A program made the position numbers and the translations under genes. This document shows, in pieces, positions 599 through 60,008 of a DNA stretch of 64,000 nucleotides (within the stretch, counting starts at the first letter, position 1; every line of letters starts with the position of its first letter). The notes under the pieces were generated by a model. It searched no databases, was not told the DNA's origin, and saw nothing but the letters and a program-made list of their open reading frames with translations. The stretch is from a virus. Its lineage: Duplodnaviria; Heunggongvirae; Uroviricota; Caudoviricetes. The stretch is from IMG/VR virus record IMGVR_UViG_3300030055_000004. One strand, 5' to 3'.

Positions 599-3098
599 AT
601 GGCAATAATTGCTGAATTTACAACAGTAAAACCTGAATTAGCTCACTCTAAAACGTATGAAGATTTTTATAAATTTCTTGGTGCTCGTCCAACTCGTTTG
701 GGTATCGTGTCTAAAATGTATGAACATTTAACTGCTTCATATTTAACAGAAGGACTAGGAAACATTATGTACAATAGTCAAAAAACAGGTTCTAAATTTC
801 AAAAAATCAATTCTCTTATGTTTGAGTGAGAAATTGATGTTAACTTTATCAAACGTATAGAATTTGCAGCTGTTCCAACTGGAAATGGTGCTAATGGTTC
901 TGATATTACCATGCAATTTACAGAACGTTATTTTGAACGTAATGATACTTTCATTATTGAAGAATCAAAACAACAATGTATTGTTATGGAAGCCCCAATT
1001 CGTAAATCAGATAATTTCTGGGAATATTCAGTAAGATTAATCGATTCAACTTATAAAGAAACTTTAGATTTTACATCATGTCAAATTGGTATGACTACTC
1101 GTTTCGTATCTAATATTCAACCAGAATATCATGAAGAAGGTTTTGCTAAATTCCAATCAAATATTGAAAAACATCGTAATTGGATTACTGAACATAGAGT
1201 TGATGTTAATTACTCTTCTCGTTATGCTTTAACCGAAGATGTATTCTTGAAAATCTCTAATGGAGAAGATGGTGGAGCTTACAAAGAAGCAATCTTTAAA
1301 ATGCCTAAAGCAAAAGAACAAGCATTAGCTAGTTTCATGGAAGCTCGTAACAATGCTTTACTTTTACAAAAAGGTACTATGGATGTGAATGGTAAGTCTT
1401 CAATCATTGACAAATTAGGTCGTCCATTGATTGCTGGTGATGGAGCAATCCCTCAAATTAATCGTTTTGCAGGTAAATATAATTACTCTAAATTAAGTGT
1501 AGCTGTATTTAATAAAGCCATTACTACAATGACTCAAAAAGCTTCTTCTCCAGGTGGAAATACATTTGTATTTGTATGTAATGAGGTAGCTTATGCTGAT
1601 GTTCAAACTACATTAGCTGAATACTTAAACAACTTCAAAGTATTAAATTCTTACATCTACTCACAAGCAGAAGGGAAAACTATTAAAGTTGGTGCTACTT
1701 ATAGTTCTTATGAATTCTTAAATAACACAATCGTATTCAAAGTAGATCGTGCTTTATCTCGTGAATATCCAAATAAAGGTTATGCAATCTTAGTAGATTT
1801 AACTGCTGATAAAGCAAGTGGTCAACCAGCATTACAATTATTCTCTTTAAAAGGCGCTGAATTTACAAGTAATACTTTAGCTGGTGTTGGTGGTCTTGAT
1901 GGTGCAACTTCAGGTGTAGTTTCTACTCCAGTTGCAGGTAGCAAATTAATCAATAGTGGATTTGCAGGTATTGGGGTATTTACACCGTATAGAGCGTTCG
2001 TACTTTGTCAATCATAATCAATATAGAAATATTTGATTAAATATCTGATTATAGTAATATTTAAAATATATTCTAAATCATTTTGTTTTACCACATAAGT
2101 TTCGTAACTTTGCATATTATTAAAATAAATATGGAGAAATACAAAATTAAAAATAATCACTATTTATATAAAATTACCAATGTAATAACTAAAGAATATT
2201 ATTTAGGTGTAAGAAGTTGTGATTGTGAAGTAAAAAAAGATAGATATATGGGTTCAAGTCAAGTTTGGACTAAGGAATATATTAAAGATAATAAACAAAA
2301 TCTTAAGAAGGAGATTCTAAATGAATTTCCTTCGAGAGAAGAAGCAGATATTAATGAAGTTATATTATTAAAAGAGAATGAACATAATTCTTTATGTATC
2401 AATATTTTATATGATTCAATTCCTAGTTGGTTGGGTAAAAAACAATCTGAGGAACATATAAATAAACGGAAATTATGTGGTGAAAGAAATGGTATGTTTG
2501 GTAAACATCATACAGATGAAGTTAAATTTCAAATTTCTGAATCACTTAAAGGACGTACTATTACAGAAGAAACTAGAGAAAAGATGTGTAAAGCTCAAAA
2601 AGGTAGAGTAATAACAGATGAAACTAAAGAAAAACTTAGAATTGCTAAAGAAGTTAAGAAATTAATTATAGATACAATTACTAATGAACAATGGGTTATG
2701 GGTTTAAAGTCATTTGCCGCTGAACATAATTTAGTTTATACAAGTTTACGTTATGCTGAAAAAAATAAAACTTTATATAAAAAACGATACAAAGTAGAAT
2801 GCATTAATGATGCGGCCTTCATTGGTAACAATGATTGCAAATTGGGTGAAAACGGGGAATAACCAGAAGTGGTCAATCCCGTCGGAAGTTTGGGAAAACT
2901 AATTAAAGTACCAAAAACCGCTAACGACTAATAGGTGAGTATAGTAAACAATAATCCTAACACGAGTGCCCGACCTCTTTATTTAGAGAGGATGATATAG
3001 TCTGAGCAATGGTATAACAAAAGAAGCCATTGAATTAAGGGATAAAGAGCCTTTAAGATAACAACACTGACAGAAGCTTCGTACTTATGCAAAACTAG
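599..3098 (+). CDS. Major capsid protein, join(599..1988,3070..3098), 472 aa, TGA=Trp at 827-829
   Basis: ORFs 599..829 and 911..2017 are in one frame across a single TGA (MFE-W-EIDVN); crAss MCP-like sequence; splicing gives C-terminus FTP-YRSFVLMQN-TAG, followed by a terminator. Confidence 0.92.
2082..2112 (+). promoter_or_regulatory. Bacteroidota primary-sigma promoter inside the intron, driving the endonuclease
   Basis: TTTG (2082-2085) - 19 nt - TAACTTTG (2105-2112), 18 nt upstream of ATG 2131. Confidence 0.8.
2131..2862 (+). CDS. GIY-YIG homing endonuclease with NUMOD3-type repeats (243 aa)
   Basis: YLYKITN...YYLG and RYMGSS motifs; repeated (H/I)T(D/E)E(T/V)(K/R)xK segments; ATG 2131 after an A-rich leader; ORF ends within the ribozyme core. 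Confidence 0.88.
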   Translation: MEKYKIKNNHYLYKITNVITKEYYLGVRSCDCEVKKDRYMGSSQVWTKEYIKDNKQNLKKEILNEFPSREEADINEVILLKENEHNSLCINILYDSIPSWLGKKQSEEHINKRKLCGERNGMFGKHHTDEVKFQISESLKGRTITEETREKMCKAQKGRVITDETKEKLRIAKEVKKLIIDTITNEQWVMGLKSFAAEHNLVYTSLRYAEKNKTLYKKRYKVECINDAAFIGNNDCKLGENGE

Positions 3099-3126
3099 GA
3101 TTAAGTTTAAATAATCCAAAATTAAA

Positions 3127-3166
3127 ATATAACTGCTACATAAATCGTGTAGCAGTTATATTTATT
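3127..3166 (+). terminator. Intrinsic terminator after MCP exon 2
   Basis: 14-bp stem ATATAACTGCTACA/TGTAGCAGTTATAT, 7-nt loop, T-rich tail. Confidence 0.75.
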
Positions 3167-3230
3167 AGATAATAAAATATAAAAAATAGATATGTAGTTT
3201 AACTACTACTTAAATTAAAAATGAATTAAT

Positions 3231-4046
3231 ATGAATGATAATATTATTATTATAAGAAGTGTATTTGGAAAAGTTGAACAATCATTCTTTATCCAACCAT
3301 GTCCTAATCCAAAAACTGGTCAATTACCTGCACATGTAAAACCAATAAATTCAAATGGGGATATGATTTTATCTGAAAAAGATAGAACTGAGATGAGTCA
3401 AGGTGCAATATTTATTGCCGCTGATGAAGCAATTGAAATAGTTGATGGAACTATGTTCGATTTAGACAATGATTATCAAAAAGCAAGATGGGAAGCTATT
3501 CAATATTCTAAACTGATTGCAAAAGAGAGAACCGCTACTAATGAACAAGGTGAATTCCTTATTGATGGTGGTCAAAAAAGATATGGAATTGCAGATTTAT
3601 ATATACAACGTCCAGGAGAAGATACTAAGATTAAAAATACTAAAAAACGTTTAGTTATTAAAGCTCAAAATTTTGTTTTAGAAGATTCACAAGAAGGTAG
3701 AGTTACAAAATGTAAATTACTTGGTAAAGAAATGGGTAGTGCACATTACAGTGATGTTGAAGATTACTTATTAAGTATTGCAGAAAAAACCCCAAATAAA
3801 ATTATTGATTTGTATACAGGTACAGATACAGAAATTCGTATGTTATTAATTGATGCTTTAAAAGCAGGAGTTATATTAATTAAATCAGGTATTTATACCT
3901 ATGGTGATTATGTAAATCTTGGTGTAACTGAAAATGCAGCTATTGCATGGTTAAAACAACAAGGAAATGCTAAATTAGTTGCAGAAATTAACTCTGAAAC
4001 ATACCCAAATTATAATAAAGTAGAGAAACCAATCTCTAAAAAATAA
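3231..4046 (+). CDS. Conserved crAss-like protein downstream of MCP (271 aa), function unknown
   Basis: Uninterrupted ORF; position in the crAss structural block. Confidence 0.8.
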   Translation: MNDNIIIIRSVFGKVEQSFFIQPCPNPKTGQLPAHVKPINSNGDMILSEKDRTEMSQGAIFIAADEAIEIVDGTMFDLDNDYQKARWEAIQYSKLIAKERTATNEQGEFLIDGGQKRYGIADLYIQRPGEDTKIKNTKKRLVIKAQNFVLEDSQEGRVTKCKLLGKEMGSAHYSDVEDYLLSIAEKTPNKIIDLYTGTDTEIRMLLIDALKAGVILIKSGIYTYGDYVNLGVTENAAIAWLKQQGNAKLVAEINSETYPNYNKVEKPISKK

Positions 4047-10924: not shown

Positions 10925-13900
10925 ATGAAAAATCTACCAAATTTATCTATAGAAAAACAACTATATTTATCTTATATTCCAAAAGAAGGTACATTATCAA
11001 ATGTTTATAATCCTTTAAGAAATTTATTAACTAATGATGGAGTTATAAATAACTTTACAACTTCAAATTTAGATTTAGATTTAAATTCACCTATTAATAT
11101 AGAAATTCAACCTTCTTTTGATGGGAGTGTTAATTTAATAATAAATAATGATAAGATAAAACCTAAATTAATTAATTCTAGATTTTCAGTTCAAGAAAAT
11201 AATACATATACAATTATAGATCATAAAGGTAATAAAGATACTAATTTATATGAAGATTTGCAATTAGATCTTGATACTAGATTATATAAAACTATTAATC
11301 AAATTCCTTCATTAGAATTTGAAGGTTTAACTATTAATGGTAAAATGAAATGTGGTGGTTATCATTTTTATTTTAAATTTACTGATAATGATGGAAATGA
11401 AACTGATTTTATATCAGAATCTGGTCTAGTAACTTGTCATATTGGTAATCTTAATGATCCATTCTCTATACGAATGGGAATGCAAAATGAAGATTCTAAA
11501 AAAGCAATTAAATTTAAACTTACTAATTTAGATACTTCTTTTGATTTTATTAAAGTGTATTATACAAGAACAACATCTGATAGTAGTCAACAAGATGTAA
11601 CAACAGCACATTTAATTGATAATAAATATGTAATTAATGGTAATATCGCTGAAATACTAATAAGTGGATTTGAAAATGTTATAGATATATCATTAACTGA
11701 TATAAATCCTTTATATGAAATTGCAAATTCTGTTAAAGCACAAGCTCAATGTCAGAATATGTTATTTTTTGGAAATATATTTAAACCTGAAATACCTTAT
11801 CAAGAACTAGAAGATTTAAGTTTACAATTTATACCTAAATTAGCTAATAAAGAATCTATTGGTAATTTAGATGGTAGTTATAATGATAAATCAGGACAAA
11901 AATTATTTGAATATTATAATACAAAAAATATTTATTACAATTTAGGATTATGACCTGAAGAATATTATAGATTAGGTATTGTATATTTATTAAATGATTA
12001 TACATTATCACCAGTTTTTAATACTAGAGGTTTAGATTTTACTAATTATAATTATCAAAATTATTCTGTATTTACAGATGAAACTAAATTAATACGTAAT
12101 TATATAAATGTGGATGAATCAAATTATTTAGTAAATAAATTAAATACTTTTGAAAATTCAAAAGGAGTTATTAAATTAAATAAAGAACAAGTGATATTTT
12201 CTGATGGTGTAAAACCAATTGGATTAAGTTTTAATATATCTTCTGAAACTATAACAGAATTAAAAAAATATACTAAAGGATTTTTTATTGTTAGACAAGA
12301 ACGTATTCCTACTATATATGCGCAAGGATTAAATATTAGTAAAACAGAAAAAGATTATGGAAATATTCCAGTATTAAGAATAGATGGAAAAGGTATTACT
12401 CAATCATTTCTTACCCCAAAATTATTACTAGGGACAACACAATTAACAACTACTAATATTTCAAATAAAGCAGCTATAGTTCCTGAAGCTGAAATAAGAG
12501 AATCATTATTTAGTCAATTATTTACATCTTCTGAATATAAATTAACAAGTGCTTTTGAACAGAGTGAATTACTAACACAAGTAAATAATAATTTTATAAT
12601 AGATAGAAATGTAACTTTATCAAATGATAATATAAGATCATCATTATTAACTATGGTTAAAGATGGTTTAAAATTAACTACAAATGGTACTGATTATTTT
12701 TCAGCAAAATCAGGAGAAGCAGAGGAAGCTTGATTAACAAATGATTTAACTAATCAATGAACTACTAAAGATGATCCAAGTGATTTAAATGAAACTGCTG
12801 CAAAAGTAAATGATCCATTGACAACAAGTTCTAATTTAATTAGAGGAATGTATGGATCATATGTTGGATTATCTAATGGATCATTAGAATTTGGGACTAT
12901 TTTCAATGTAGGGGTTATATTTAATGTAAGACCTATAGATTTTAGTAATTCTGATGACTATAAATTAAATATGTTTAAAGTAAGAATGGATTCATCTGAA
13001 CCATATTCTGCAGTTAGTGATAGACTTTCTTGAGATACTTTTATTAGTAATGGTTTAAATGTATATAGAGGTGATTGTTTTGTCTGTAATTTTACACATA
13101 GAATGAATCGTAATTTTATTGATCCAGATTTACCAACAAATACTAAAATAATAGATGTAAATACTTGAAAAAAGAATTATACTGTTTATCAAGATGGTGT
13201 TGCAGATAATTTAGCTGCTAATAGAGTTTTAATTAGTTATAAACAAAAAGGAACTGATACACCTATTGAACCTTCAGATGCTAGTTATGCAAATAAAGGA
13301 TCTGGTGTAAGTTCTTTATTGGGTGGTGGTGATGATTCCTATAAAATTAAAGGTGCTGATAAAATAAATAGAGCAGATGTAAATAGTGTTCAATTAGGTC
13401 AATGAGTTACTTTTAAAGTTATGTCTAATATAAATTTATCTATGCGAGATATAGATTATAGTAATACTGCAGAAGAAGCTATATTTGGACATAAACGTAG
13501 TTTTTACCCATTACAACCAATGTCTTCAGAAGGTCCATTTAAATTACCAGATTCTTCTGTAATAAACGGAGCTGCTAATTTAACATTATCAGAACGTAAA
13601 AACTTTATTATACCTGATGTGCCATTTATTAAAAATAAATTTGATACAAGAATTTTATATTCTGATATACATGTAACAGATGCATTTAAAAATGGTTATA
13701 GAGTATTTGAAGGAGGGCATTATCAAGATTATACTAAAACATATGGATCTATAGTAGATTTAAAAGAATGGTATGGAAGTTTATTTTGTACTATGGAACA
13801 TGGTTGTTTATTAATACCTGTAAATGAAAGGGCTATAGCTGCAGAAGGTGCAGGTGGAAATGCTTATATTAATACTTCAAATGTATTACCTGAAAATCCA

Positions 13901-15172
13901 AGAGTTATATCTGATTTATTTGGAAGTACATGACAAGAATCAATTATTAAAACAAAAACAGGTATCTATGGTTTAGATACAGTAGCTAAAAAAATCTGAT
14001 GTGCTACTTCTGGTGGAGATGGGAATATACAATTAGAAACTATATCTGATTTAAAAGTTCAAAAATTTTTAAATGATAATATAAATTTAAAAGAAGCTGA
14101 TAAAATTCCTACAATGGGATTAAAAAATGTAAAAACTCATTATAATAAAAATAAAGGAGATATATTATTTACATTTTATAATGGAATTAAAGAATGAAAT
14201 TTATGTTATAATGAAAATCTTAAGAAATTTATTACATTCTATTCATGAACTCCAAGTCATTCTGCTAATATTGATAATATATTTTTTACTTTTGATAAAA
14301 AATCAAGTAAGAATAATCTAAAATTAGATGCAAATAATAATATCTTAAAAAGTACCAATGGTTTAATGAGTCCAATTACTGGAGTTGTTGATAATAAAAT
14401 TTGAAAACATGGTCAATCTGGTATATATGATAATCAAGGATTAATAATGCCTACAAATTGGTATGGCGAATTACACCCATTTGAATTTGAATTTGTAGTA
14501 GCAGATATACCAATTGCACAAAAGATTTTTAATAATTTAAAATTAATTAGTAATAAAGTTGAACCTGAATCATTTGAATTTGAAATTGTTGGGGAAAGTT
14601 ATGATTGATTTGAAATTAAAGATTTAATTATCTGAATAAATAATCAAGTAAAATCTTATTCAACTACAAATTCTCATTTTGTTGACTTACCAACGGCATA
14701 TAAATACATTCTAGGATTAAATTTATCAGAAATTGAACAAATATATCCTAATTTTATTAGACCTTTCTCAAAAGAAGATACTTTATATGATCTATATAAA
14801 TTTCCTAAATTACCATACTTAAATAGAATTAGAAAATCTAATGGTTTATGAGAAGCTAATTCTGCAAATGTAGAATTAAGAGTAGATGATCTATTAAATG
14901 AAGACAGAATTCATACTCAACAAAATGCTAATAATATGAAAAAATATGGCAGAGTAAAAGGTAATATGCAATATAAAGAAGATGTCTGAGATGTAGAAAT
15001 TAGACCAATAACTTTTAAATATGCTTATTTAAAAAATGGCATTTTAAACTATACAGTAGGTAAAGAATTAAGAATTAGAGATAAATATGTAAAAATTAGA
15101 GTTAAATATACAGGAAAAGATTTAACTATTATACAAGCAATTAAAACAAATTTTACAATAAGTTATGCATAA
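10925..15172 (+). CDS. Muzzle / P22 gp10-like tail protein (1415 aa), 15 in-frame TGA=Trp
   Basis: One frame from ATG 10925 to TAA 15170-15172; TGA at 11951, 12731, 12758, 13031, 13166, 13403, 13931, 13997, 14195, 14246, 14402, 14606, 14633, 14849, 14987 and no TAA/TAG between. Confidence 0.8.
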
Positions 15173-47015: not shown

Positions 47016-47723
47016 TTAAGAATTATAAAATTTACGAGCATATTGTCGTCTTAAACTCTCCATTTTTGCATTTGGTGCAGGATTTTCAAAATGTTTTCTA
47101 AATAATTCAGCTGCATCTTCTGGAGTTTTTGCTTCTTTTATCTTAGAAAGAACACCACTATAACTATTATTTAATTCATGCCATAGATATTCCATTTGAC
47201 CATTTACAGAGGTATTATCTAATCCTCTTGCAGTTGAAAAGTTTTTTAAATTAGTCCATCTTCCTTGACCTACAGTTGGATCTCTCCATTGTGCTAACCC
47301 AAAAGATGTACCTTTATCCCCACCTGCTGTGGTATTTAATCCAGATTCAACCATTAAATTACCAACTACACCAGAAGCTGCTTCTTTAGATAAACCTTTA
47401 TTAGTTAAAAAAGAAACCATATCTTTAGCTACACCTGTTTGTCCTTTACTAATTTTTATATTAGCAGTAATTGGGGTTTCTTTAGGTACAATTGGTGTTA
47501 CAATTTGTGGTGTAGAAGTTGAAAATAAAGGACTAGTAGATTTTATAACATCAGGTATATTATAATTTGGTAGAGTTGGTGTTTGTATATTAGTTATTGG
47601 TGCTGTATAAATAGGTGCACCTGTATATTGTACAAAAGGTAAAAGTACAGAGGTTTCTCCTGGATTATATTTATTCATATACTCTGCATATTGATTTATA
47701 TCATTTGTTGTATCGTAGTCCAT
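47016..47723 (-). CDS. Phage tail lysozyme (Phage_lysozyme2-like) with Pro/Thr-rich N-terminal linker (235 aa)
   Basis: GNLMVESGLN, GTSFGLAQW, QMEYLWHEL, AA..F..HFE motifs; ATG 47723 preferred over GTG 47810. Confidence 0.85.
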   Translation of the reverse strand: MDYDTTNDINQYAEYMNKYNPGETSVLLPFVQYTGAPIYTAPITNIQTPTLPNYNIPDVIKSTSPLFSTSTPQIVTPIVPKETPITANIKISKGQTGVAKDMVSFLTNKGLSKEAASGVVGNLMVESGLNTTAGGDKGTSFGLAQWRDPTVGQGRWTNLKNFSTARGLDNTSVNGQMEYLWHELNNSYSGVLSKIKEAKTPEDAAELFRKHFENPAPNAKMESLRRQYARKFYNS

Positions 47724-47745
47724 ATTTTTAGATTTATTTAATTTG

Positions 47746-47753
47746 TAAAGGTA
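47746..47753 (-). promoter_or_regulatory. Possible -7 box (TACCTTTA) for the lysozyme gene
   Basis: One mismatch to TAnnTTTG, located between a terminator and ATG 47723. Confidence 0.35.
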
Positions 47754-47790
47754 CAAAATAAAACCTATAAAAAATACTAAAATATAAATA

Positions 47791-47832
47791 AAAAAAAATA
47801 GCCTAACCACATCATCACGACGGGGTTAGGCT
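47791..47832 (-). terminator. Intrinsic terminator ending the ligase operon
   Basis: AGCCTAACC/GGTTAGGCT stem followed on the - strand by A and a long T run. Confidence 0.8.
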
Positions 47833-47883
47833 TCACTACTTTATAAACAAAAAAGTATTTTTTACGTGTACTACACGTTATAT

Positions 47884-48234
47884 TTAAGAAAATAGTTTAC
47901 TCCAGGCAGATTTTCTGGATAAATTATTTTCTAATTGAGTTTTAAATTCTTCTTTATTATTGTTATCAATTGATATTCTTTGATTAATACCAAGTAATAA
48001 TTCAATAATTTTTGATTCTAATGCTTCTACTGATTCTGGTATTGACTCTGTAGAATTTATCTCCCTATTAAAAGGAGATAAATCTATAGATCTACATGAA
48101 TAACTATCAGTTTTAAAATAAATATAAGTATAAAATTTATTTTTATTTATTTCTATATTTAGTCTTTTATTTTCTTCTAACATTTGATCATATTGCCATT
48201 TAGGCATTGTAATTGTTATTTCATCTCTATTCAT
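47884..48234 (-). CDS. Hypothetical protein (116 aa)
   Basis: ATG 48234 overlaps the ligase stop; ends TAA. Confidence 0.7.
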   Translation of the reverse strand: MNRDEITITMPKWQYDQMLEENKRLNIEINKNKFYTYIYFKTDSYSCRSIDLSPFNREINSTESIPESVEALESKIIELLLGINQRISIDNNNKEEFKTQLENNLSRKSAWSKLFS

Positions 48235-49402
48235 AATCACGAACGCATTTAAATACAGGTTGACTTGGAATACCATCATCTGACCAACTAAAAAATGTAA
48301 CAGATGCTTTTTTACCAACTAGGTCTTCCCATGTTGCTAAATATTCTGCTCTTACTTCCCTAGTTCCCATTGGTTTTGCATCAAAACTCTTCCCTGTTTT
48401 AGTTTTTAAAGTGAAACAGAAATCTTCATCACGAAGTCCTTCTGATACACCTATTATTTCAAATTCTTCTTCCATACGTTCTTTTAGTTTAACCATAAGA
48501 ACACTAGAACGCTTTCCAATACCATATGGTTTATTAGGATTACGCATTACTAAACCTTCATAACCTTCTCTTACAAATTGATCATGAGTTTTTTTAATTT
48601 TTAAATATCCAGATAATAAATAATGATCTATAACTGTAATTTTAGGTTCATCTTTCATTATTTCTTGTAATTCCATTAATAATTCATATCTATCAACAAA
48701 ATTTAAAGTTGGATGATATATATCATAAATCCAATAATTTAATACATCACATTTAGATTCCCATTCTTTAACTCTAGCCATACCAGACAGTTTTTGAAGA
48801 GAAGTACCATGATTATATAATTCACCATCCAATTTTAAATCTGGATTAGCAATAAACCATTTAATTAATTTTTCACTAGCTCTAATTTTAGTAGTTGGTA
48901 TATTATATTCTCCACCACCACGACTTGCACTATGTATCTCATTATCTTTAAGAAATAGGCAACATCTAACTCCATCAAGTTTTCTTGAACAATACCATTC
49001 TTTTTCAAATATATTTGAAGAACACTTTTCAGAAGATACTGCAAGCATGGGTTTTGGTACACCATTTTGATCTTCTTTGTCAGTATTTACTAATTCATCA
49101 ATTTCAGAATCTGATAAATCTTCAAAAGAGATTTCAGTTAAATCTTCAATTTTTGTATATCCTTTATCCATATATTTTTTTAATATGGATTTATATTCTA
49201 ATTCAGCTTGTTGGATTGGAGTTCTTTTTACTTTACCACTAGTTATAGTAATAACAGGTTGAGGAGTTATCTTTCCAGCCAATTGACTTGTAAATCTTTT
49301 TATTTCAAATGAGGTAGTATTTTGTTCACAAATAGTATGAACAATTTGTACTTTACCTCTAACATTTCTACTTACTAAGTAGTTTTCAAATACTATTGCC
49401 AT
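48227..49402 (-). CDS. lig: ATP-dependent DNA ligase (391 aa)
   Basis: KPMLA, SRKLDGVRC (KxDG), LDGELY, EGYEGLVMR, KLK motifs and OB-fold C-terminus. Confidence 0.95.
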   Translation of the reverse strand: MAIVFENYLVSRNVRGKVQIVHTICEQNTTSFEIKRFTSQLAGKITPQPVITITSGKVKRTPIQQAELEYKSILKKYMDKGYTKIEDLTEISFEDLSDSEIDELVNTDKEDQNGVPKPMLAVSSEKCSSNIFEKEWYCSRKLDGVRCCLFLKDNEIHSASRGGGEYNIPTTKIRASEKLIKWFIANPDLKLDGELYNHGTSLQKLSGMARVKEWESKCDVLNYWIYDIYHPTLNFVDRYELLMELQEIMKDEPKITVIDHYLLSGYLKIKKTHDQFVREGYEGLVMRNPNKPYGIGKRSSVLMVKLKERMEEEFEIIGVSEGLRDEDFCFTLKTKTGKSFDAKPMGTREVRAEYLATWEDLVGKKASVTFFSWSDDGIPSQPVFKCVRDYE

Positions 49403-49758
49403 TAAATTTTTTTATTTTGTTCTAATTTATCTAATTCCCAACCAATACATTCTTCAAGGCAAGTTCCACCATTATAAAAACCCACTCTAAATTCATACAT
49501 ATCATTTCCTAATGGATTTAGACTACAATCATCATCATTAACTTCCGAATGATCAAATATCCAATAAAGATCATTGTTATGAACCATATAAGTTTCATAA
49601 CTATCTTCATATACTAAATAATCAATCCAATCTTCTACTTCTTCAGTAGGATAATCATGGGTTTCTAAATAAATACGTTTACATTGTTCATCTAATGGTT
49701 CAAATTTTAATCTTGGTAATAATTTTAATTTACCAATATGATATTCTATATCACTCAT
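49402..49758 (-). CDS. Hypothetical acidic protein (118 aa)
   Basis: ORF coupled to the ligase start. Confidence 0.7.
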   Translation of the reverse strand: MSDIEYHIGKLKLLPRLKFEPLDEQCKRIYLETHDYPTEEVEDWIDYLVYEDSYETYMVHNNDLYWIFDHSEVNDDDCSLNPLGNDMYEFRVGFYNGGTCLEECIGWELDKLEQNKKI

Positions 49759-49764
49759 AATTTA

Positions 49765-49950
49765 TTATTCTATTACTGTCCAACAAGAATCAATGTTTTC
49801 CCACATCCAAGCTTCATATTCACCTTGAATTATTTGATCTGGATCTTTATCACAATCATAATCATCTGGTATAGATATAATTTTAATATGTTCTCTTTCT
49901 GAACCTTGACATCCTGTTGCTACATAAAAATTTACTTTTATATTTTTCAT
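49765..49950 (-). CDS. Small hypothetical phage protein (61 aa)
   Basis: ATG 49950, FYVATGCQGSE; ends TAA. Confidence 0.65.
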   Translation of the reverse strand: MKNIKVNFYVATGCQGSEREHIKIISIPDDYDCDKDPDQIIQGEYEAWMWENIDSCWTVIE

Positions 49951-49988
49951 TCTACAAATACCTTTTGTATTGTTTTTTCTGTATTCAT
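49947..49988 (-). CDS. 13-codon coupling minigene [13 protein letters not shown] ending in TGA
   Basis: TAATG overlap with the dut stop and ATGA overlap with the next start. Confidence 0.4.
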   Translation of the reverse strand: MNTEKTIQKVFVE

Positions 49989-50473
49989 TATTTTGTTCCT
50001 GTTGAGTTAAAGCCACCTTCACCTCTGTCTGTTTTATCTAAATGAATTACTTCATTCCATTCAATTAAAGATACTTTAGCTAAAACTAATTGAGCTATTC
50101 TATCTCCTTGTTGTATTTCAAATACATCATCACTTAAATTCATAAGTATAACACCAATTTCTCCACGGTAATCACTATCAATCGTTCCAGGTGTATTTAA
50201 TACTGTTACCCCAAATTTTAATGCAGTACCACTTCTTGGTCTTACTTGTAGTTCATATCCTGGAGGAAATGAAGTGTATAATCCTGTTGGGATTAATACT
50301 CTACCACCACTGAATACTAATAATGTATTTCTTTCTTCATCAAATGCTGCTCCGAACATATATTCAGAATTTAAGCCATTGGTAAAGTTAGCACGGAGAT
50401 CCTGTCCTGAATCTCCGGGTTTCGCATATGTTGGGAGGGCATTCCCTCCATCATTTATTACGTTTACTTTCAT
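49988..50473 (-). CDS. dut: Trimeric dUTPase (161 aa)
   Basis: All five motifs: [35 protein letters not shown]. Confidence 0.97.
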
Positions 50474-50612
50474 CGTTTATTTTTTCTTTTTCTAATTTCT
50501 TAATTAACTCAACAAGATTATAATAACCTTGGCATTTAGTACTCATATCACTAAGAATACTGAAATGAAGTTCAATATATTTAAGAGTGTATAAATCCAG
50601 TTTCTTTTCCAT
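50451..50612 (-). CDS. Hypothetical protein (53 aa) ending in TGA
   Basis: ATG 50612 to TGA 50451-50453, overlapping the dut start; fills an otherwise empty gap. Confidence 0.5.
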
Positions 50613-50760
50613 TATTTTGTATTATTTCAAGTACTTTTTCTAATTCAACATATTTTTTAGTTACTGGACAGAATTTTATACTAATCCATTTATTCTCTAT
50701 TATATTAATAGTTTTTAATTTATTAATTTTTAATTCTATTTTATCCGACTCTAAACTCAT
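50581..50760 (-). CDS. Hypothetical protein (59 aa)
   Basis: ATG 50760 to TAA 50581-50583; below the track length cut-off. Confidence 0.5.
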   Translation of the reverse strand: MSLESDKIELKINKLKTINIIENKWISIKFCPVTKKYVELEKVLEIIQNNGKETGFIHS

Positions 50761-50950
50761 TGTCTTTTAATGTATTACTAATTAATATTTCATAGTGTTT
50801 ATAACTACTTAATCTAGTACCATCTTCTTCAATACCTATGCATAATTCTTGTAGAAGAACCGTAGCAGTAGTTGAATTCATAACAATGAACTCAACTACT
50901 CCTTTCATACTCTTACTAATTATTGCTTCATTTAATAATTTTTGTATCAT
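50741..50950 (-). CDS. Hypothetical protein (69 aa)
   Basis: ORF in operon orientation. Confidence 0.6.
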   Translation of the reverse strand: MIQKLLNEAIISKSMKGVVEFIVMNSTTATVLLQELCIGIEEDGTRLSSYKHYEILISNTLKDNEFRVG

Positions 50951-50960
50951 TTATTTTTTA

Positions 50961-51203
50961 TTAATTATCATAGTATACTTCATCTAATGGAACTGTTACT
51001 ATTGATTCTAGATGTTCCTCACTCCAATAACTATATTCACCATCTTCATCATTAGTATCAATCACACATTCTCTATCTGTATTGAATTTGAATTCTCCTT
51101 TATTAACCCAACCTTCAATAAATCCTACTATAAACCCAGTATAAAGATCACCACATTCAGTAAACCAAACTTCATCTCCTACAAAAAACTTTTTCTTCCC
51201 CAT
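50961..51203 (-). CDS. Hypothetical acidic protein (80 aa)
   Basis: ATG 51203 just after the RNR stop; KFFVGDEVWF. Confidence 0.65.
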   Translation of the reverse strand: MGKKKFFVGDEVWFTECGDLYTGFIVGFIEGWVNKGEFKFNTDRECVIDTNDEDGEYSYWSEEHLESIVTVPLDEVYYDN

Positions 51204-51205
51204 TT

Positions 51206-53767
51206 CTATGCACATTTCGAATTACCGCAATTAAGACATTGCTTGCATCCTGATTGATAAACAATTGTCTCCATTCCACATTCTGTACAAATTTCTCCAT
51301 GAGATTGTGTACCATCTTTTACAAATGGTTTTAATGATCTTTCAATACCATTTTTCCAGTTATTCATTCCTTTATTAGTGAACATTAATCCACCAACAAC
51401 TTTAATAACTTGTTCAATAGGAGTTTTATGTCTTAATAATGCTGATACAAATCGAGCATAATTCCAAAATTCTTTATCAAAAATACGAGATAATCCTCCT
51501 AATGTATTAGTATATCCATAAGAATCAATATATCTAAAATCATATCTTGAGGTTCCATCATTTTGTTGTACTTTAATAATTTGTCCACTAGTTACAAAAG
51601 ATGGAATTGGAAATACATCCATATCTTTAGGGCCAGTAAATATTTCATAAGGTAAATCATTCATAATTCCTATAAATGCAACCCAATCTTTTTTCTCATT
51701 TTTAAATTGTTCAACTTTACATTCTAATTCAATAGGTCTTTCTTCTAGAATGTCAGAAGATACATCTGCAGTTTTAGTTAAAATACCAGCTCTACATCCA
51801 TCACGATATACAGTTGTCCCTTTTAAATCATACTTCCATGCTAATCTATAAAGAGTATCTATAGTTTCCTTAGGAGTATCACTTGCTAAATTAATAGTAG
51901 AACTAATAGAATGAGTAGTATATTTTTGTAATAAACTCTGAGTTTGAATTCTCACTTCTGGAGTAATATCTTCAGCCATATTATTATACCAAGGAGAGTT
52001 TTCAATTAAGAAATCTAACTCAGCATCTGGCATTTTCATTAATACTTCAATAGTACTTAATGGATTTTTTGATATATACCATTTCTTAAAACTACCATGA
52101 ATAACTCTATTATTAGTATAACCTTGGCCACTTAAATCAATAAAATCAGGAGTTTCATTTCCATTACATTTCTTTCTGCGATTGTAATATGCCATAAATA
52201 ATGGTTCACAACCACTTGTTGTACCTGCTTCAATACTGATAGTACCAGTAGGTGCAATTGTGCTCCAACTAATATTTCTCCTGCCATATTTTTTCATTTT
52301 TTCATATTGAGGTCTAAAATTAGTTCTCAAAAATTGATAAAATTGATTACCTGCCGACTCAAGATCTCCATCTAAAGGGTATTCTAAATCTTTATCATAA
52401 ACAGGAAATGGATCATTAATAATTGCTAAATCAATAGTTGCATCTGATTCAGCTTTCATTTTGAGAGCCATGATTTGTTTAGTGATAGCTACATCTCCAT
52501 AATCTACACCTAATGCAGCACATAAATCTCCATAACCAGTTATACCTACTCCTGTACGTCTGCCATTTTGACCTACTTCATAAATTTTTTCCCAAAGGAC
52601 TTTTTCATCTCCTATTGTTGCATCAATTATTCTTTGTACATGTTCAAGTTCTAAATCAACAAGAATATCACCAATTACTTGTGCTTCATAAAATACTTTA
52701 TAAGCCTTATCTATATTAATTGTAGCATTGTCTTCAAATTGATTATCTACTAAATTGAATAAATTCACTGCAATTAATCTACAAGAATCATAAGGTGAGA
52801 GTGGAATCTCTCCACAAGGATTTGTGCTAATTGCTCTAAATTCTGGATATACACTTGCAGGATCATTATCAATGATGGTATCCCAAAATAAAATACCAGG
52901 TTCTGCTGTATTCCAAGCACATTGAATTATAGAATCCCATAATTCTTTTGCTTTAATTTTCTTTGCATATGCAACTAATACACCATCTACTTTAATACTT
53001 TTTAAAATATTATAAGGAAATTCCATTTCAGATTCAAGTAATTCATTACATTCATAATCAACTGGCCACCTTAGTATATAATCTTCATTTGCTTCAACAG
53101 CTTTCATAAATGTATCTGTTAATCTTACAGATATATTTGCCCCATTAATTTTAGTTAAATTTTGTTTAGCTAAAATAAATTCTGGAGAATCTGGATGATC
53201 AATACTTAATGAAAGCATTAATGCTCCACGTCTACCATCTTGTCCAATAGTTTCAGTAACTTTACTGTATAATTCTGCAAATGGTACAATACCACCAGTA
53301 GTTTTTGCTGCATTATTTACATAAGCTTTTGCAGGTCTAATAGGAGATAAATCAGTCCCATTACCACCTCTACGTTTATAAATCTGCGACATATCTCTTG
53401 CTGTATTAAAAATATCAGCAATAGAATCATCTGTTGGCGTAACAAAACAATTAGATAATGATACTAATTTTCCACTACCTAATCCTGCTAGTACAGAACC
53501 ACCAGGAATTATATATTTAAAATCAGTAAATAATTCTAATAATTTTTCTTTAAAATCTTGATCATTTCGTTTTTTTCCATAATCTGATAAATCCGCATAT
53601 TTTTCAGGAGATATTTTATTAATATTCATAAAATTATCTTTTCTTGCAAATTCTGATGCTAAACGATTAAAAAACTCAGATAAAGTTTCGTCATTTAATC
53701 TATATTTATCAACCCACACTTTTCGTGCTAAATCATCGTTTTTGAAGTAATCTTCAATTTCTATCAT
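51206..53767 (-). CDS. nrdJ: Class II (adenosylcobalamin-dependent) ribonucleotide reductase (853 aa)
   Basis: PGGSVL, SNCF, GGNGTDLS.IRP, TNPCGEIPL..YDSCRL, RRTGVG, TIAPTGTIS, C-terminal CxxC..CxxC..C; no beta subunit gene nearby. Confidence 0.93.
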   Translation of the reverse strand: MIEIEDYFKNDDLARKVWVDKYRLNDETLSEFFNRLASEFARKDNFMNINKISPEKYADLSDYGKKRNDQDFKEKLLELFTDFKYIIPGGSVLAGLGSGKLVSLSNCFVTPTDDSIADIFNTARDMSQIYKRRGGNGTDLSPIRPAKAYVNNAAKTTGGIVPFAELYSKVTETIGQDGRRGALMLSLSIDHPDSPEFILAKQNLTKINGANISVRLTDTFMKAVEANEDYILRWPVDYECNELLESEMEFPYNILKSIKVDGVLVAYAKKIKAKELWDSIIQCAWNTAEPGILFWDTIIDNDPASVYPEFRAISTNPCGEIPLSPYDSCRLIAVNLFNLVDNQFEDNATINIDKAYKVFYEAQVIGDILVDLELEHVQRIIDATIGDEKVLWEKIYEVGQNGRRTGVGITGYGDLCAALGVDYGDVAITKQIMALKMKAESDATIDLAIINDPFPVYDKDLEYPLDGDLESAGNQFYQFLRTNFRPQYEKMKKYGRRNISWSTIAPTGTISIEAGTTSGCEPLFMAYYNRRKKCNGNETPDFIDLSGQGYTNNRVIHGSFKKWYISKNPLSTIEVLMKMPDAELDFLIENSPWYNNMAEDITPEVRIQTQSLLQKYTTHSISSTINLASDTPKETIDTLYRLAWKYDLKGTTVYRDGCRAGILTKTADVSSDILEERPIELECKVEQFKNEKKDWVAFIGIMNDLPYEIFTGPKDMDVFPIPSFVTSGQIIKVQQNDGTSRYDFRYIDSYGYTNTLGGLSRIFDKEFWNYARFVSALLRHKTPIEQVIKVVGGLMFTNKGMNNWKNGIERSLKPFVKDGTQSHGEICTECGMETIVYQSGCKQCLNCGNSKCA

Positions 53768-53789
53768 ATTTATTCTTTTAAATTGTATA

Positions 53790-53821
53790 CAAAGATACAA
53801 CAATTTTTCAATTCTCGCAAG
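53790..53821 (-). promoter_or_regulatory. Bacteroidota-type promoter for nrdJ
   Basis: CTTG - 20 nt - TATCTTTG on the - strand, 22 nt upstream of ATG 53767. Confidence 0.75.
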
Positions 53822-53865
53822 TATTAAAAAATGTTAACTCTCTATATATTATATGTTTATAGATA

Positions 53866-54138
53866 TTACATATCTAAAAATTCTTGGATTAACTCAGGTG
53901 TTAATTCCTTTTTACTTTCAGGCCAATATGCCGCATATTCGACCACATTTTCATTCTCAAATATTAAAATAGGTAATTGTTTAGCCCCATGTCTAGTCAT
54001 TAAAAGAATAGCATTTTTACGTTGTTTATAATTATCAAAATTATATGTTTCTAAATAAATAGGATATGTAACTTTATCTAATATACTAAAAACATTATCT
54101 TTTGTTTCATTATTATAAACTAATTTAATTACTCTCAT
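53866..54138 (-). CDS. Hypothetical protein, possibly glutaredoxin/thioredoxin-like fold lacking Cys (90 aa)
   Basis: Size, GAKQLPILIF segment and position next to RNR; no CxxC. Confidence 0.45.
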   Translation of the reverse strand: MRVIKLVYNNETKDNVFSILDKVTYPIYLETYNFDNYKQRKNAILLMTRHGAKQLPILIFENENVVEYAAYWPESKKELTPELIQEFLDM

Positions 54139-54394
54139 TTTCTATATAATATTTAATTATTTGTCCATTTTTATCATATAAGATAGTTAATGGAATATCT
54201 AGTTTAATACATGATAATTTTACTGCATATAATAAATCAAATTGATGGGTTCTTATTAGTTGAACTATATTTTGTAAATCTACAGGAGTTGGTTGTTGTC
54301 GTCCAAATAAGTCTGTAACATTTACAATAAATTGATTTAACTCACCTATTGTCATTTGAGTATTATTAATAATTTTCTCAATTATTTCTTTCAT
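54125..54394 (-). CDS. Hypothetical protein (89 aa)
   Basis: ORF in operon orientation. Confidence 0.7.
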   Translation of the reverse strand: MKEIIEKIINNTQMTIGELNQFIVNVTDLFGRQQPTPVDLQNIVQLIRTHQFDLLYAVKLSCIKLDIPLTILYDKNGQIIKYYIENESN

Positions 54395-54434
54395 ATAATA
54401 TTTTTTAGTTGTGAGTAGTATTTAAAATCATTTT

Positions 54435-54479
54435 AATTAATTGTAATACCAAAACTGAATAATGGTATTACAATTAATT
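54435..54479. repeat. Perfect 17-bp intergenic inverted repeat
   Basis: AATTAATTGTAATACCA (54435-54451) - 11 nt - TGGTATTACAATTAATT (54463-54479). Confidence 0.9.
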
Positions 54480-54500
54480 TTAAATGTTTAAAATGAAAAA

Positions 54501-54728
54501 TTATACATTAATAGATAAATAATCTATTTCATAATCTCCATGTAATAATTCTTTAATAAGATTCTCATTTTCTTCATCATACACCTCACTCAATTCTTCT
54601 GCTGTTATATCAGATGGGATTGTAATAAATTTAGTAATACAAGCTTCAACTAGTACTTCTTGAGTATTTTGATTCCAAGGTGCATCTTCTGTATGTTCTG
54701 ATACTCCAGGTGGATAATTTGATAACAT
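54501..54728 (-). CDS. Small acidic protein with NYPPG...APWN motif (75 aa)
   Basis: ORF; motif recalled from small phage proteins. Confidence 0.7.
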   Translation of the reverse strand: MLSNYPPGVSEHTEDAPWNQNTQEVLVEACITKFITIPSDITAEELSEVYDEENENLIKELLHGDYEIDYLSINV

Positions 54729-54729
54729 A

Positions 54730-55170
54730 TTAATTTCTTTTTAAAAAAATATAATCTACACCTTTATAATAGTAAATTTCTCTTGGTTCAGTATCTAATA
54801 TATCTTCATAATTATTCAAACAATATTCTTCAAGTTCATCTTCATCTACTATAAAAGTGGATGGCATATAATTTGAATTTCTCATATTATATTTTAAATC
54901 TTGTTCTGCATTATAAATTTCATTAGGTAATAATTCATATTTAATTAAATTATGCATTTCTGTTGCTGTATAAATTAAATAATTATATTCATCTTCATCA
55001 TTATAAGTAGCTTTGAAATTATTATCATCATCACTATCTTCATCTAACTCTACAATTTCTAAATCATCACTATCTATTTCTAGAAATTCTTCTAAAGCTT
55101 CAATTTTTAAAATTACTACTTGTTGTTCTTCAGTAAGGATTATTTCCTCTACATTTTCTAAATTATTCAT
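54730..55170 (-). CDS. Very acidic hypothetical protein (146 aa)
   Basis: ORF, D/E-rich. Confidence 0.75.
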   Translation of the reverse strand: MNNLENVEEIILTEEQQVVILKIEALEEFLEIDSDDLEIVELDEDSDDDNNFKATYNDEDEYNYLIYTATEMHNLIKYELLPNEIYNAEQDLKYNMRNSNYMPSTFIVDEDELEEYCLNNYEDILDTEPREIYYYKGVDYIFLKRN

Positions 55171-55471
55171 ATACTACTATTGTTTTTGTTATTGGAAATA
55201 CTTCCTTTATCTCTTCTATTTCAAAATAATCATAACCATGTATACTAATCATACAAAAGTATTTATTATCTGAAATCCTTTTAAATATTGTTTCTCTAGT
55301 TATAGAACCACCATGACCTTCATCATAACTATCAATAGTAGAGTCAACTACTTCAAAAAGTAATTTTGAATCATCATCACAATCATCATCTATATAAATA
55401 TCTTCAAAATAAGTAAGTTGATCAAAATTATATTTATCCCATTGGGATTTATCAATTATTTCTCTATTCAT
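55163..55471 (-). CDS. Acidic hypothetical protein (102 aa), probable paralogue of 55464..55748
   Basis: IFKRISDNKYF...EVFPITKTIVVYE versus ILQRATDDKFF...EVQPKQVMTTIYE. Confidence 0.7.
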   Translation of the reverse strand: MNREIIDKSQWDKYNFDQLTYFEDIYIDDDCDDDSKLLFEVVDSTIDSYDEGHGGSITRETIFKRISDNKYFCMISIHGYDYFEIEEIKEVFPITKTIVVYE

Positions 55472-55748
55472 AGATTGTAGTCATTACTTGTTTTGGTTGT
55501 ACCTCCATTAAAATAAATTCTTCATCATCTTCAGTATAATCAGACATATTACAATTATAATTATAAAAAGCACTTGTACTAAAGAACTTATCATCAGTAG
55601 CTCTTTGAAGAATTACTTCAAATTCCCAAAGGTCATGATCAACTCCTAATAATTTTTTATAATCTTCAACTATTTCAAAATTATCAGATTCATTATCTAG
55701 AATTTCTATGAATTCTTTACCAAATATAATAACTTCTTCTTTAATCAT
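55464..55748 (-). CDS. Acidic hypothetical protein (94 aa)
   Basis: ORF with overlapping start/stop; similar to its neighbour. Confidence 0.7.
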   Translation of the reverse strand: MIKEEVIIFGKEFIEILDNESDNFEIVEDYKKLLGVDHDLWEFEVILQRATDDKFFSTSAFYNYNCNMSDYTEDDEEFILMEVQPKQVMTTIYE

Positions 55749-56514
55749 TAGTAACTCCTAATAAACGGTTAATAATCATAGTCTTTTCAAACTTATTCAT
55801 AATATCTTTTTTATCATCAGTTACTATTTGAGTAAATGCATTATATACATCAAATAGTGAAGGATCATGACCTTCTGGAATAAAATATTCACTCTCTTGA
55901 TTAATAAATAATTGTTTATATGCATCAATTGGAGTAGATACTGCAATTTTTACTTTACCAAAACCATAGTCTTGTGATTCTCTTAAAGAGTAGTCAACCC
56001 ATTCTCCAAGATATTGTTTACGCATATCCCTACTAAGGAATTCACTTTTCATTTTTGCCATATTAATAGCAAAGTCATTAGTATATTCCATTAAATCCTT
56101 AATTGGTTTAAAATTAATTGGATCTCCTGGGATTAAATCTTGTACATTTAACCATTGAGGATTAAATACTGTTAAATTTGTACAGGCTTGATTCAAATAT
56201 CCTCTATAGATTTTAACTACTGGTTTCTTTACATCTATACCATATAAAAATCCTATAACTTCATCATGAGAATCAATACTGTATTTCTCAGGTAATACTG
56301 CTTGAATTAAAACTCTATTAAAAGTTATATCAGTATTCTCTGTATTTGTGGTCATTTGATCAGGCATTTTTACTTGAATCCTAAAATCTTCTGTAAAAGC
56401 AGTCATTCTTTCTAAAAATGGTTCTACATAATTTTTAGTTGCATTAAATTCTTTATTTTTTATAAGGGTTGACTTCCCTCTTAGCAATTCTGCTATACTT
56501 ATTTCATTTGCCAT
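55741..56514 (-). CDS. Conserved crAss-like protein, possibly DUF932-like (257 aa)
   Basis: Long ORF; ACTNL..F and S.FDVYNAFTQ segments; family call from recall only. Confidence 0.6.
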   Translation of the reverse strand: MANEISIAELLRGKSTLIKNKEFNATKNYVEPFLERMTAFTEDFRIQVKMPDQMTTNTENTDITFNRVLIQAVLPEKYSIDSHDEVIGFLYGIDVKKPVVKIYRGYLNQACTNLTVFNPQWLNVQDLIPGDPINFKPIKDLMEYTNDFAINMAKMKSEFLSRDMRKQYLGEWVDYSLRESQDYGFGKVKIAVSTPIDAYKQLFINQESEYFIPEGHDPSLFDVYNAFTQIVTDDKKDIMNKFEKTMIINRLLGVTND

Positions 56515-56516
56515 TA

Positions 56517-56798
56517 TTAATCATTATTATTTTCATTTGCATATAATAAACCTTCATCATAACCTTCACTATATCCATTTTCGTACCCATTTTTATATCC
56601 ATTTTCATATGCCCTGTCAGATTCTTCACTACAACCTCTATCATAACCTTCATCATAACCTTCAGCAGAACCATCAGCAAATGCTAAATTATATTCTTCA
56701 GCTAACTGATCTTCAAAAATAGAATATAATTCTTCAACTAATTCATCTTCTTCATACTCGAAATTTTCAAGTAAAAATTCTCTTATATTTTCTTTCAT
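56517..56798 (-). CDS. Acidic protein with GYxxG (GxxxG) repeats (93 aa)
   Basis: EGYDEGYDRG...NGYKNGYENGYSEGYDEG. Confidence 0.7.
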   Translation of the reverse strand: MKENIREFLLENFEYEEDELVEELYSIFEDQLAEEYNLAFADGSAEGYDEGYDRGCSEESDRAYENGYKNGYENGYSEGYDEGLLYANENNND

Positions 56799-56799
56799 A

Positions 56800-57165
56800 T
56801 TAATAACTTATTTTTTTTCCACATTCAGGACAATAATTTTGTTCATTAAATTTTGCATCATCACAACAATTAACTATTTTTAATTCTCTTTTTTTAATTA
56901 AATAACTATATTGTTTAACTAATTCATCTAAATTTAAAAATTCTAATTCTGGATATTCATCTGTATCTTCTAAATCTTCAGGATCATATAATAAATCTTT
57001 ATTGACATGATAATTTATATAATCTTGTATAAAACTCTCTAGTTCATAATTACTATAAATATCTATATCATTATCTTTAATAAATTCCTCAATATCAAAT
57101 TCAATATCTGTATTAAATAATTTATTAAGTTGGATTGTATATCTGCTTTTTATTTTTACTATCAT
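56800..57165 (-). CDS. Acidic hypothetical protein with C-terminal CC...CPEC (121 aa)
   Basis: ORF; possible Zn ribbon. Confidence 0.7.
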   Translation of the reverse strand: MIVKIKSRYTIQLNKLFNTDIEFDIEEFIKDNDIDIYSNYELESFIQDYINYHVNKDLLYDPEDLEDTDEYPELEFLNLDELVKQYSYLIKKRELKIVNCCDDAKFNEQNYCPECGKKISY

Positions 57166-57533
57166 AATTTACAATTTTCTAAATTAAATTCATATTCAAA
57201 ATCTTCACTTTCTTCCATAAATTGAATAGGAGGAATTTCTCCATTCTTTAATTTATAAGTATAAAATTTATTATGTAGTAAAGGTAATCCTTCTACATCT
57301 GAATCATATTCAGATTGCATATAAGCTATATCCTCTGCAAAGTTTAAATAAGGATAATCTTCTTCTTTAATATCTTCATCATCATATGATGTATTATATA
57401 AACCTGCTGGAGTTTGTTTTACATCATGAAAATATTTACAGAAATGATCAATAAAATCTTGATTAATTACTGTTTCATCTATTTCAACTGTATAAATCTT
57501 TTCAGATTTAATTGTTACTTCTATTGTTTTCAT
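57162..57533 (-). CDS. Acidic hypothetical protein (123 aa) ending in TGA
   Basis: ATGA overlap with the next gene; TGA immediately followed by TAG. Confidence 0.7.
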   Translation of the reverse strand: MKTIEVTIKSEKIYTVEIDETVINQDFIDHFCKYFHDVKQTPAGLYNTSYDDEDIKEEDYPYLNFAEDIAYMQSEYDSDVEGLPLLHNKFYTYKLKNGEIPPIQFMEESEDFEYEFNLENCKL

Positions 57534-59122: not shown

Positions 59123-59167
59123 TTTCAATTTTTTATGGGTTGTACCCCGTTAATTCGTGTATTAATG

Positions 59168-59202
59168 AAAAAAGGCCGATAGAATTTAATCTACCGACCT
59201 TT
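59168..59202 (-). terminator. Intrinsic terminator
   Basis: GGTCGGTAGA-TTAAAT-TCTATCGGCC-TTTTTT on the - strand. Confidence 0.85.
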
Positions 59203-59937: not shown

Positions 59938-60008
59938 AATTTTAATTTTTACTTATTAATTCATTAATATTTTATATCTAATTGTATTTATTATCTCCTT
60001 TTGTTATA

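Follow-up and report, generated by a model that had tools for sequence, protein, structure and literature searches.

The capsid gene and its two endings

The 64,000-nucleotide (nt) stretch of IMGVR_UViG_3300030055_000004 analysed here (the window, whose positions serve as coordinates throughout) carries on its plus strand, from position 599 on, late genes of a crAss-like phage whose code assigns TGA to Trp. Among them is the gene for the major capsid protein (MCP), which is interrupted near its end by an element that, judged by comparative sequence evidence, is a group I intron of the IA type. The subject of this study is the beginning of this intron, where a 29-nt stand-in for exon 2 lies that we call the spare ending. 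The coding parts of the capsid gene and the hairpin behind it are as follows.

599-1988, plus strand: exon 1 of the MCP gene (Pfam Crass_capsid 3e-11; PHROG major head protein)
1989-2017, plus strand: the spare ending (surrogate exon 2), which completes the split Tyr codon and adds 8 codons and TAA
3070-3098, plus strand: exon 2, which supplies the final 29 nt of the capsid gene including its TAG, a stop where TGA is read as Trp
3125-3163, no strand assigned: a 16-bp hairpin after exon 2, with counterparts after exon 2 in relatives

The spare ending and exon 2 are each 29 nt long, match without gaps at 18 of 29 positions, have TTCGTACTT in common and carry their stops in the same register. Matches to exon 2 at 18 or more of the 29 positions were found at 7 of approximately 128,000 window positions on both strands (5.5e-5 per position), and two of these seven are the element itself. 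With TGA read as Trp, the unspliced open reading frame (ORF) 599-2017 encodes 472 amino acids (aa) ending in PYRAFVLCQS before the stop, and the computed joining of 1988 to 3070 likewise yields 472 aa, here ending in PYRSFVLMQN; the spare and the genuine C-terminal residues are identical at 6 of 9 positions. The duplication reported in a preliminary description of this DNA was thus reproduced in its equal length, identity, common block and stop register, and so was the prediction of a full-length MCP with or without splicing.

Exon 1 is colinear with 79 related MCP genes and contains one in-frame TGA (W77), at a position where relatives invariably have Trp. Many plus-strand ORFs of the window are long only if TGA encodes Trp. 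The reassignment of stop codons in late genes has been described for crAss-like phages, as have frequent group I introns in their capsid genes (PMC7886860). In-frame TGA was frequent in the plus-strand late ORFs (599-46962), one of which (10925-15172) contains 15 such codons, and nearly absent from the minus-strand ORFs (47016-63837). ARAGORN detected no tRNA, and hence no suppressor tRNA, in the 64-kb window.

Relatives were collected as loci designated by L-numbers, and the comparisons reported below cover the 16 loci with the ribozyme at the same capsid site. In 16 of these 16, exon 2 follows the terminal G of the intron in register. A survey of capsid alleles drew on the best-matching capsid loci, with a readable C-terminus in 79 alleles; exon 2 of the window fits the C-terminal consensus of the 76 that are intronless. 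The capsid transcript probably has its 3' end or terminator in the hairpin at 3125-3163. No terminator-like hairpin was found in 2018-2130, the stretch between the spare stop and the endonuclease gene described next.

The ribozyme and the endonuclease gene

Between the splice sites, the intron comprises a long-range P1 helix, an endonuclease ORF and a ribozyme core, arranged as follows.

1985-1990, plus strand: P1 5' strand CCGU/AU (the slash marks the splice site), which pairs with 2810-2815; the 5' splice site is after U1988
2018-2130, plus strand: AT-rich spacer in the P1 loop, unconserved and barely alignable among loci
2131-2862, plus strand: I-TevI-like homing endonuclease ORF of 243 aa (PHROG 314 homing endonuclease 6.6e-28; NUMOD3 1.3e-7)
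2810-2815, plus strand: internal guide sequence AUGCGG, the P1 3' strand, separated by about 820 nt from the 5' splice site upstream
2820-2833, plus strand: P2 hairpin CAUUG-GUAA-CAAUG, with compensatory changes in 6 of 6 pairs (helices 1-2)
2842-3069, plus strand: ribozyme core and 3' domain, with P3, P4-P6, P7, P7.1, P8, P9, P9.1 and the terminal G3069
2842-2847 with 2968-2973, plus strand: P3, part of the ribozyme core
2926-2930 with 2998-3002, plus strand: P7, part of the ribozyme core
2974-2991, plus strand: P8, part of the ribozyme core

P1 of the window has 6 bp, with U1988.G2812 at the splice site. Seven combinations of exon/intron and guide sequence occur across the 16 loci, and U.G stands at the splice site in every one:

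1: CCGU/AU with guide AUGCGG
2: CCUU/AU with guide AUGAGG
3: CCUU/AC with guide GUGAGG
4: CCAU/AC with guide GUGUGG
5: CCAU/GA with guide ACGUGG
6: CCGU/AU with guide GUGCGG
7: CCGU/AA with guide AUGCGG

Covariation was observed at position -2, the third base of the Pro codon (G-C, U-A, A-U), at position +1 (A-U, G-C) and at position +2 (U-A, C-G, U.G), which fixes the 5' splice site after U1988 and clears the P1 part of the refuting condition set in the preliminary description. Guide pairing past +2 was looked for across the loci and is not present. In all loci the guide lies approximately 30 nt upstream of P3, and it was from the alignment of this region that the true guide sequence was located; GTGGTG at 2477, inside the endonuclease ORF, was rejected as a guide because it is missing in relatives. 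Given the guide at 2810-2815, the spare ending and the endonuclease ORF both lie inside a P1 loop of about 820 nt.

The ribozyme alignment was built from 13 distinct ribozyme regions. RNAalifold returned P2, P3, P4, P5, P6, P7.1, P8 and P9.1 as a consensus, to which P7 was added by hand. The resulting structure of 52 pairs in 11 helices is paired in 98% of the alignment cells, and 35 of the 52 pairs show compensatory changes; none of 500 shuffles was as good, and slid controls were paired at 31-47%. P7 is invariant across the alignment, and P7.1, a helix between P7 and the 3' strand of P3, covaries as predicted for subgroup IA. A G precedes exon 2 in 16 of 16 loci, in the window as G3069. For the ORF-less relative L190 (268 nt), folding by energy only already gives P1 to P9.1, with a z of -4.8. 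Both structural predictions of the preliminary description, a 6-bp P1 with U.G at the splice site and an intact-looking ribozyme, are therefore borne out, the first by covariation in 16 loci and the second by compensatory changes from P2 to P9.1 together with the terminal G, which confirm a group I architecture.

The window contains no second intron of the same family and no other endonuclease of this kind. Many further group I introns of phages, located in unrelated genes (L029, L030, L041, L049, L053 and about 15 other loci), contain the P3-P4-P5 block GGGTGAAAACGGGGAA...AATCCCGT, which is a useful seed for IA introns missed by Rfam.

The last codons of the endonuclease are encoded by the guide sequence, that is the P1 3' strand, and by P2-P5 of the ribozyme. 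NUMOD3 was detected in 4 of 4 endonuclease homologues (best E 2.3e-12), and a profile of these four sequences matches the I-TevI DNA-binding domain 1I3J (2.5e-5). A motif of the GIY-x10-YIG type (YLYKITN-x9-YYLGVRS) and the residues R28, E76 and N91 are invariant among the four; the Pfam GIY-YIG models give no significant match (SegE_GIY-YIG at E 0.86), a phmmer search of the endonuclease against PDB sequences gave no match, and its AlphaFold model is poor, with a mean predicted local distance difference test score (pLDDT) of 53. Taken together, the enzyme appears to be I-TevI-like, with a putative GIY-YIG catalytic class. Homologues of 243-268 aa are intact at every spare-ending locus except L062, and in-frame TGA or TAG codons within them agree with the code of the respective phage. 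In L013 (116-180) and L024 (824-890), two loci with TAG read as Gln, the ATG of the endonuclease lies 2 nt past the spare-ending stop (intron +32), and its translation could be coupled to capsid termination on unspliced RNA; in other lineages the distance from spare stop to endonuclease start is approximately 75-115 nt.

Constraint on the spare ending and alternative explanations

A survey of related MCP introns, suggested in the preliminary description, turned up 13 other IMG/VR contigs (about 10 lineages) in which this layout interrupts the identical capsid codon; wherever the endonuclease is present, the intron opens with the final capsid codons copied in frame. Among the spare-ending loci, seven belong to phages that read TGA as Trp and six to phages that read TAG as Gln. 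If TGA is read as Trp throughout, four spare endings seem two codons short and one extended, all of them from phages favouring TAG as Gln; read in the code of its own phage, every spare ending consists of 9 codons and a stop. In the phages with TAG as Gln, TAG encodes Gln at position 8 of the spare ending, and TGA stops are confined to these phages just as TAG stops are confined to those with TGA as Trp. L059 has TGA for Trp at the split codon, in the copy and in exon 2 alike. Trp also occurs at this codon in L281, an intronless locus of a phage with TGA as Trp, where CCGT/GA places TGA in the position of the usual Tyr; the variant in L059 is therefore not limited to intron-bearing genes.

We propose, with a probability of about 0.72, that the spare ending is a fail-safe for mRNA translated before splicing, within a mobile IA intron of the capsid gene. 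The first explanation to be weighed against it holds that the copy is a functionless, still undecayed leftover of a capsid end, carried along with the endonuclease cassette, and that the intron splices efficiently enough for only exon 2 to matter. For the final 54 nt of exon 1, mean pairwise identity amounted to 0.64-0.66; the spare ending reached 0.55 and exon 2 0.58, compared to 0.34-0.38 in the 54 nt past the spare stop and the 27 nt past exon 2. A conservation like that of exon 2, which falls to background exactly at the spare-ending stop, argues against a hitch-hiking relic, as does the pattern of change: close pairs differ by synonymous substitutions only (CAA/CAG in L022/L014, AGT/AGC in L012/L025), Ser9 is retained through AGT, AGC, TCT and TCA and thus survives a switch of codon family, and stops and reassigned codons agree with the code of each phage.

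Agreement within genomes is further evidence against a relic. Between the copy and exon 2 it amounts to 6.5 of 9 aa within a genome versus 4.5 of 9 between genomes (permutation p<1e-5, an optimistic value given that the lineages are related), and genome-specific matches comprise Trp1 in L059, Tyr4 in L039 and L015, Ala6 in L015 and Val5 in the window. This agreement suggests that the two endings have co-adapted or undergone gene conversion; at the first codon, RNA pairing contributes as well, since the same bases of the guide pair with both. Finally, L062 has lost most of its endonuclease gene and retains the spare ending, which likewise speaks against a relic. On this evidence we consider a relic unlikely. 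Cys is not conserved across the spare endings, and an earlier idea that the unspliced form supplies a capsid isoform with an extra Cys is not supported.

Several results weigh against a fail-safe, and some of them favour a relic. Codon differences among spare endings number 72 synonymous versus 194 non-synonymous, as compared to 117 versus 154 in exon 2, and third-position changes are not in excess; the higher non-synonymous share indicates weaker constraint on the spare ending and a freer evolution than that of exon 2. At position 8, 8 of 11 spare endings (counted as lineages) have Gln and 76 of 76 intronless alleles Glu, a lineage mark that implies descent from one cassette, so the similarity of the spare endings reflects partly inheritance and not selection. 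The link between endonuclease and spare ending probably goes back to one origin as well, and hence does not amount to 13 independent observations. In addition, an AT-rich stretch of 8 codons is fairly often free of stops by chance. As to the ribozyme, Rfam gave no match in the whole window at the gathering score (RF00028, 50 bits) and only chance matches in 1900-3250 at E up to 10; 2840-3110 searched alone reached 19.2 bits (E 0.007), as a 5'-truncated match to RF00028. The miss can be attributed to a model ill-suited to a P1 that is split by an 820-nt insert or to a divergent IA core, and since the score stays below the gathering score, the ribozyme call rests on comparative structure.

A second alternative, which we regard as improbable, assigns the copy a non-coding role, as an extended mimic of P1/P10, as a homology arm for homing or as a mimic of the target that modulates the nuclease of the element. 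It is true that the first two bases of the copy, like the first bases of exon 2, pair and covary with the guide, and that the junction of exon 1 and the copy resembles the uninterrupted target site. However, guide pairing ends at +2, and the copy shows the traits of protein-coding sequence in its frame, its length, the register of its stop, its synonymous changes and its code-specific codons. Across lineages the copy and exon 2 do not differ consistently near the insertion site: in L012 the copy equals exon 2 over the first 13 nt, and in L015 the two agree at 25 of 29 positions. The earlier suggestion that substitutions at this point protect the copy from the nuclease of the element thus finds no support.

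The dependence on splicing can be judged from two relatives, L190 and L017, which carry the same ribozyme at the same site, with P1 loops of 5 and 29 nt, and have neither endonuclease nor spare ending. The unspliced capsid ORF stops at once in L190 (CCG TAA) and after three codons in L017, so a full capsid protein needs splicing in these phages. A further pair, L003 with and L004 without the intron, shows about 100% identity for 2 kb on the upstream side, and once more starting approximately 135 nt downstream. The differences are confined to position -2 (CCG versus CCT, the base that pairs in P1), the intron, exon 2 and the hairpin region, and exon 2 of L003 differs from the ending of L004 by 5 nt, all synonymous. 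Judged by this pattern, the replaced tract is a homing-type co-conversion, in which the unit that moves comprises the spare ending, the endonuclease gene, the ribozyme, exon 2 and the terminator region. The tract (L003, 3366-4560, versus L004, 4195-4330) takes in the intergenic hairpin after the capsid gene, and it extends about 135 nt on the 3' side but 2 nt on the 5' side, unlike the upstream cleavage expected of I-TevI. The distribution of the intron is patchy (present in 3 of the 79 surveyed alleles, absent in 76), and together with the L003/L004 tract it lends indirect support to homing driven by the endonuclease.

A third alternative, in which the ribozyme no longer splices, the upstream ending alone is used and 3070-3098 is a displaced pseudo-ending, would agree with a capsid gene that is complete without splicing, with the Rfam result at the gathering score and with the layout of atp6, atp9, cox2 and nad3 in fungal mitochondria (PMC3630166), but is very hard to reconcile with covariation in P1 and the core, which implies ongoing selection on the fold, with an exon 2 that holds the capsid consensus and changes only synonymously between L003 and L004, with ORF-less relatives that lack a spare ending and rely on splicing, and with a transcript hairpin that follows exon 2 and not the spare ending.

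Other introns were noted in the same genes. The capsid genes of L007, L008, L009, L010, L011, L017, L059 and L190 are split elsewhere by further group I introns, several of which encode a larger, distinct endonuclease of the GIY-YIG type (N-terminus MKYIVY...KIYIG), and the capsid gene region of L010 contains at least 4 P7-type motifs. On a GC-richer contig, L181 (400-860) has two tandem related IA-type introns with a mini-exon of about 50 nt between them and a last exon of 26 nt plus stop; no spare ending was seen there.

Proposed function and relation to known elements

The proposed fail-safe would work as follows. The intron site lies 29 nt before the capsid stop, and the long-range P1 joins the exon end to a guide about 820 nt away. 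Ribosomes trailing the RNA polymerase would meet the 5' splice site before the guide and the core are transcribed, approximately 820-1080 nt later. These early ribosomes, on unspliced RNA, would terminate at 2015-2017 and release a full-length protein by way of the spare ending. With later formation of P1 the intron would be excised and the genuine ending used, with a 472-aa product by either route. Both splicing in vivo and a meaningful level of translation of unspliced RNA are presumed here, and selection may keep the spare ending since a capsid protein without its last nine residues would carry a cost. The preliminary description had called the intron self-insuring. The part of this claim that stands is the full-length protein by either route, whereas the notion that splicing is dispensable was overstated, as selection acts on exon 2 and the ribozyme too, so that both routes appear to be used.

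As to its origin, an endonuclease cassette lying behind a complete capsid gene, and taking the end of that gene along, likely entered the P1 loop of an intron without an ORF by recombination. The guide, built to recognise both exon ends through P1 and P10, would still recognise the junction of exon 1 and the spare ending. The ORF-less forms could equally be deletion derivatives of the full element.

In the textbook view, phages tolerate group I introns solely because these splice. In the td intron of phage T4, the ORF occupies a loop at the periphery of the core, and RNA that stays unspliced yields a truncated protein. The element of the window resembles td and I-TevI in its IA-type core within a phage protein gene, its modular I-TevI-like endonuclease with NUMOD3, an in-frame stop soon past the 5' splice site and a homing-type co-conversion of flanks. 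In contrast to td, its ORF lies in the P1 loop, and the stretch from splice site to stop is a copy, of working length, of the coding sequence that remains. Translation running into the intron is considered a barrier to the spread of introns in protein-coding genes (reviewed in PMC3984707).

Introns in the capsid genes of crAss-like phages were described by Yutin et al. 2021 (PMC7886860), who recognised them through endonuclease domains that split the ORF. Phage group, gene and the reassignment of stop codons in late genes are the same as here; a duplicate ending and an apparently complete ORF are absent from that description.

The closest match to the cassette is provided by mobile endonuclease ORFs of fungal mitochondria, as in atp6, atp9, cox2 and nad3 of Glomus (Beaudet et al. 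2013, PMC3630166). As in the window, an essential gene has received an endonuclease ORF close to its 3' end, a replacement C-terminus has come in frame with it, and the resident ending now lies displaced downstream; the two copies of the ending diverge far more in DNA than in protein (PMC3630166). The fungal elements are free of a ribozyme, and the displaced ending is unexpressed in atp6 and cox2 (PMC3630166), whereas the cassette of the window lies inside a group I intron whose splice sites are the boundaries of the cassette, so that the downstream ending can be rejoined. A free-standing element of the fungal type was ruled out for the window by the enclosing, covarying ribozyme, with P1 on the left and the terminal G on the right. 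Judged by its parts, the element works partly like the fungal mobile endonuclease ORFs and yet stands outside that family. For Allomyces, Paquin and colleagues are said to have described in 1994 a mobile endonuclease ORF in atp6 with a carried C-terminus.

Some integrative elements bring a replacement 3' end of the transfer RNA (tRNA) or transfer-messenger RNA (tmRNA) gene that they enter. They likewise substitute a displaced part, through site-specific DNA recombination by an integrase and with no RNA splicing, and the parallel is purely conceptual. In thermophilic Bacillus/Geobacillus, group I introns lie close to the 3' ends of flagellin genes (Hayakawa and Ishizuka 2009, 2012, as cited in the review PMC3984707); they are bacterial, lack an ORF and occupy another host gene, which is likewise a very highly expressed structural one. 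Our search of the literature for a phage intron that carries a substitute last exon found no description.

If the proposed reading holds, the layout has consequences for annotation, since ORF-based pipelines will record the capsid gene as uninterrupted and the endonuclease as free-standing; intron counts in crAss-like phages would therefore be underestimated. The reassigned stop codons of the spare endings also provide a small, independent read-out of late-gene recoding.

If a fail-safe is indeed encoded, the intron would no longer depend on splicing for the essential protein that the phage makes in the largest amount, and its persistence in a capsid gene with a guide 820 nt from the splice site would be explained. 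It would also unite self-splicing introns and endonuclease cassettes that carry a C-terminus, which were formerly described apart, and it predicts two capsid isoforms. More tentatively, and with somewhat more doubt than confidence, introns with spare endings might represent a solution that is general and selected, allowing endonuclease-laden group I introns to settle close to the 3' ends of the most heavily translated structural genes, such as phage capsid and bacterial flagellin genes, despite transcription being coupled to translation. Both isoforms would then occur in virions, at a ratio set by the speed of P1 formation, and the two endings would co-evolve to fit one shell.

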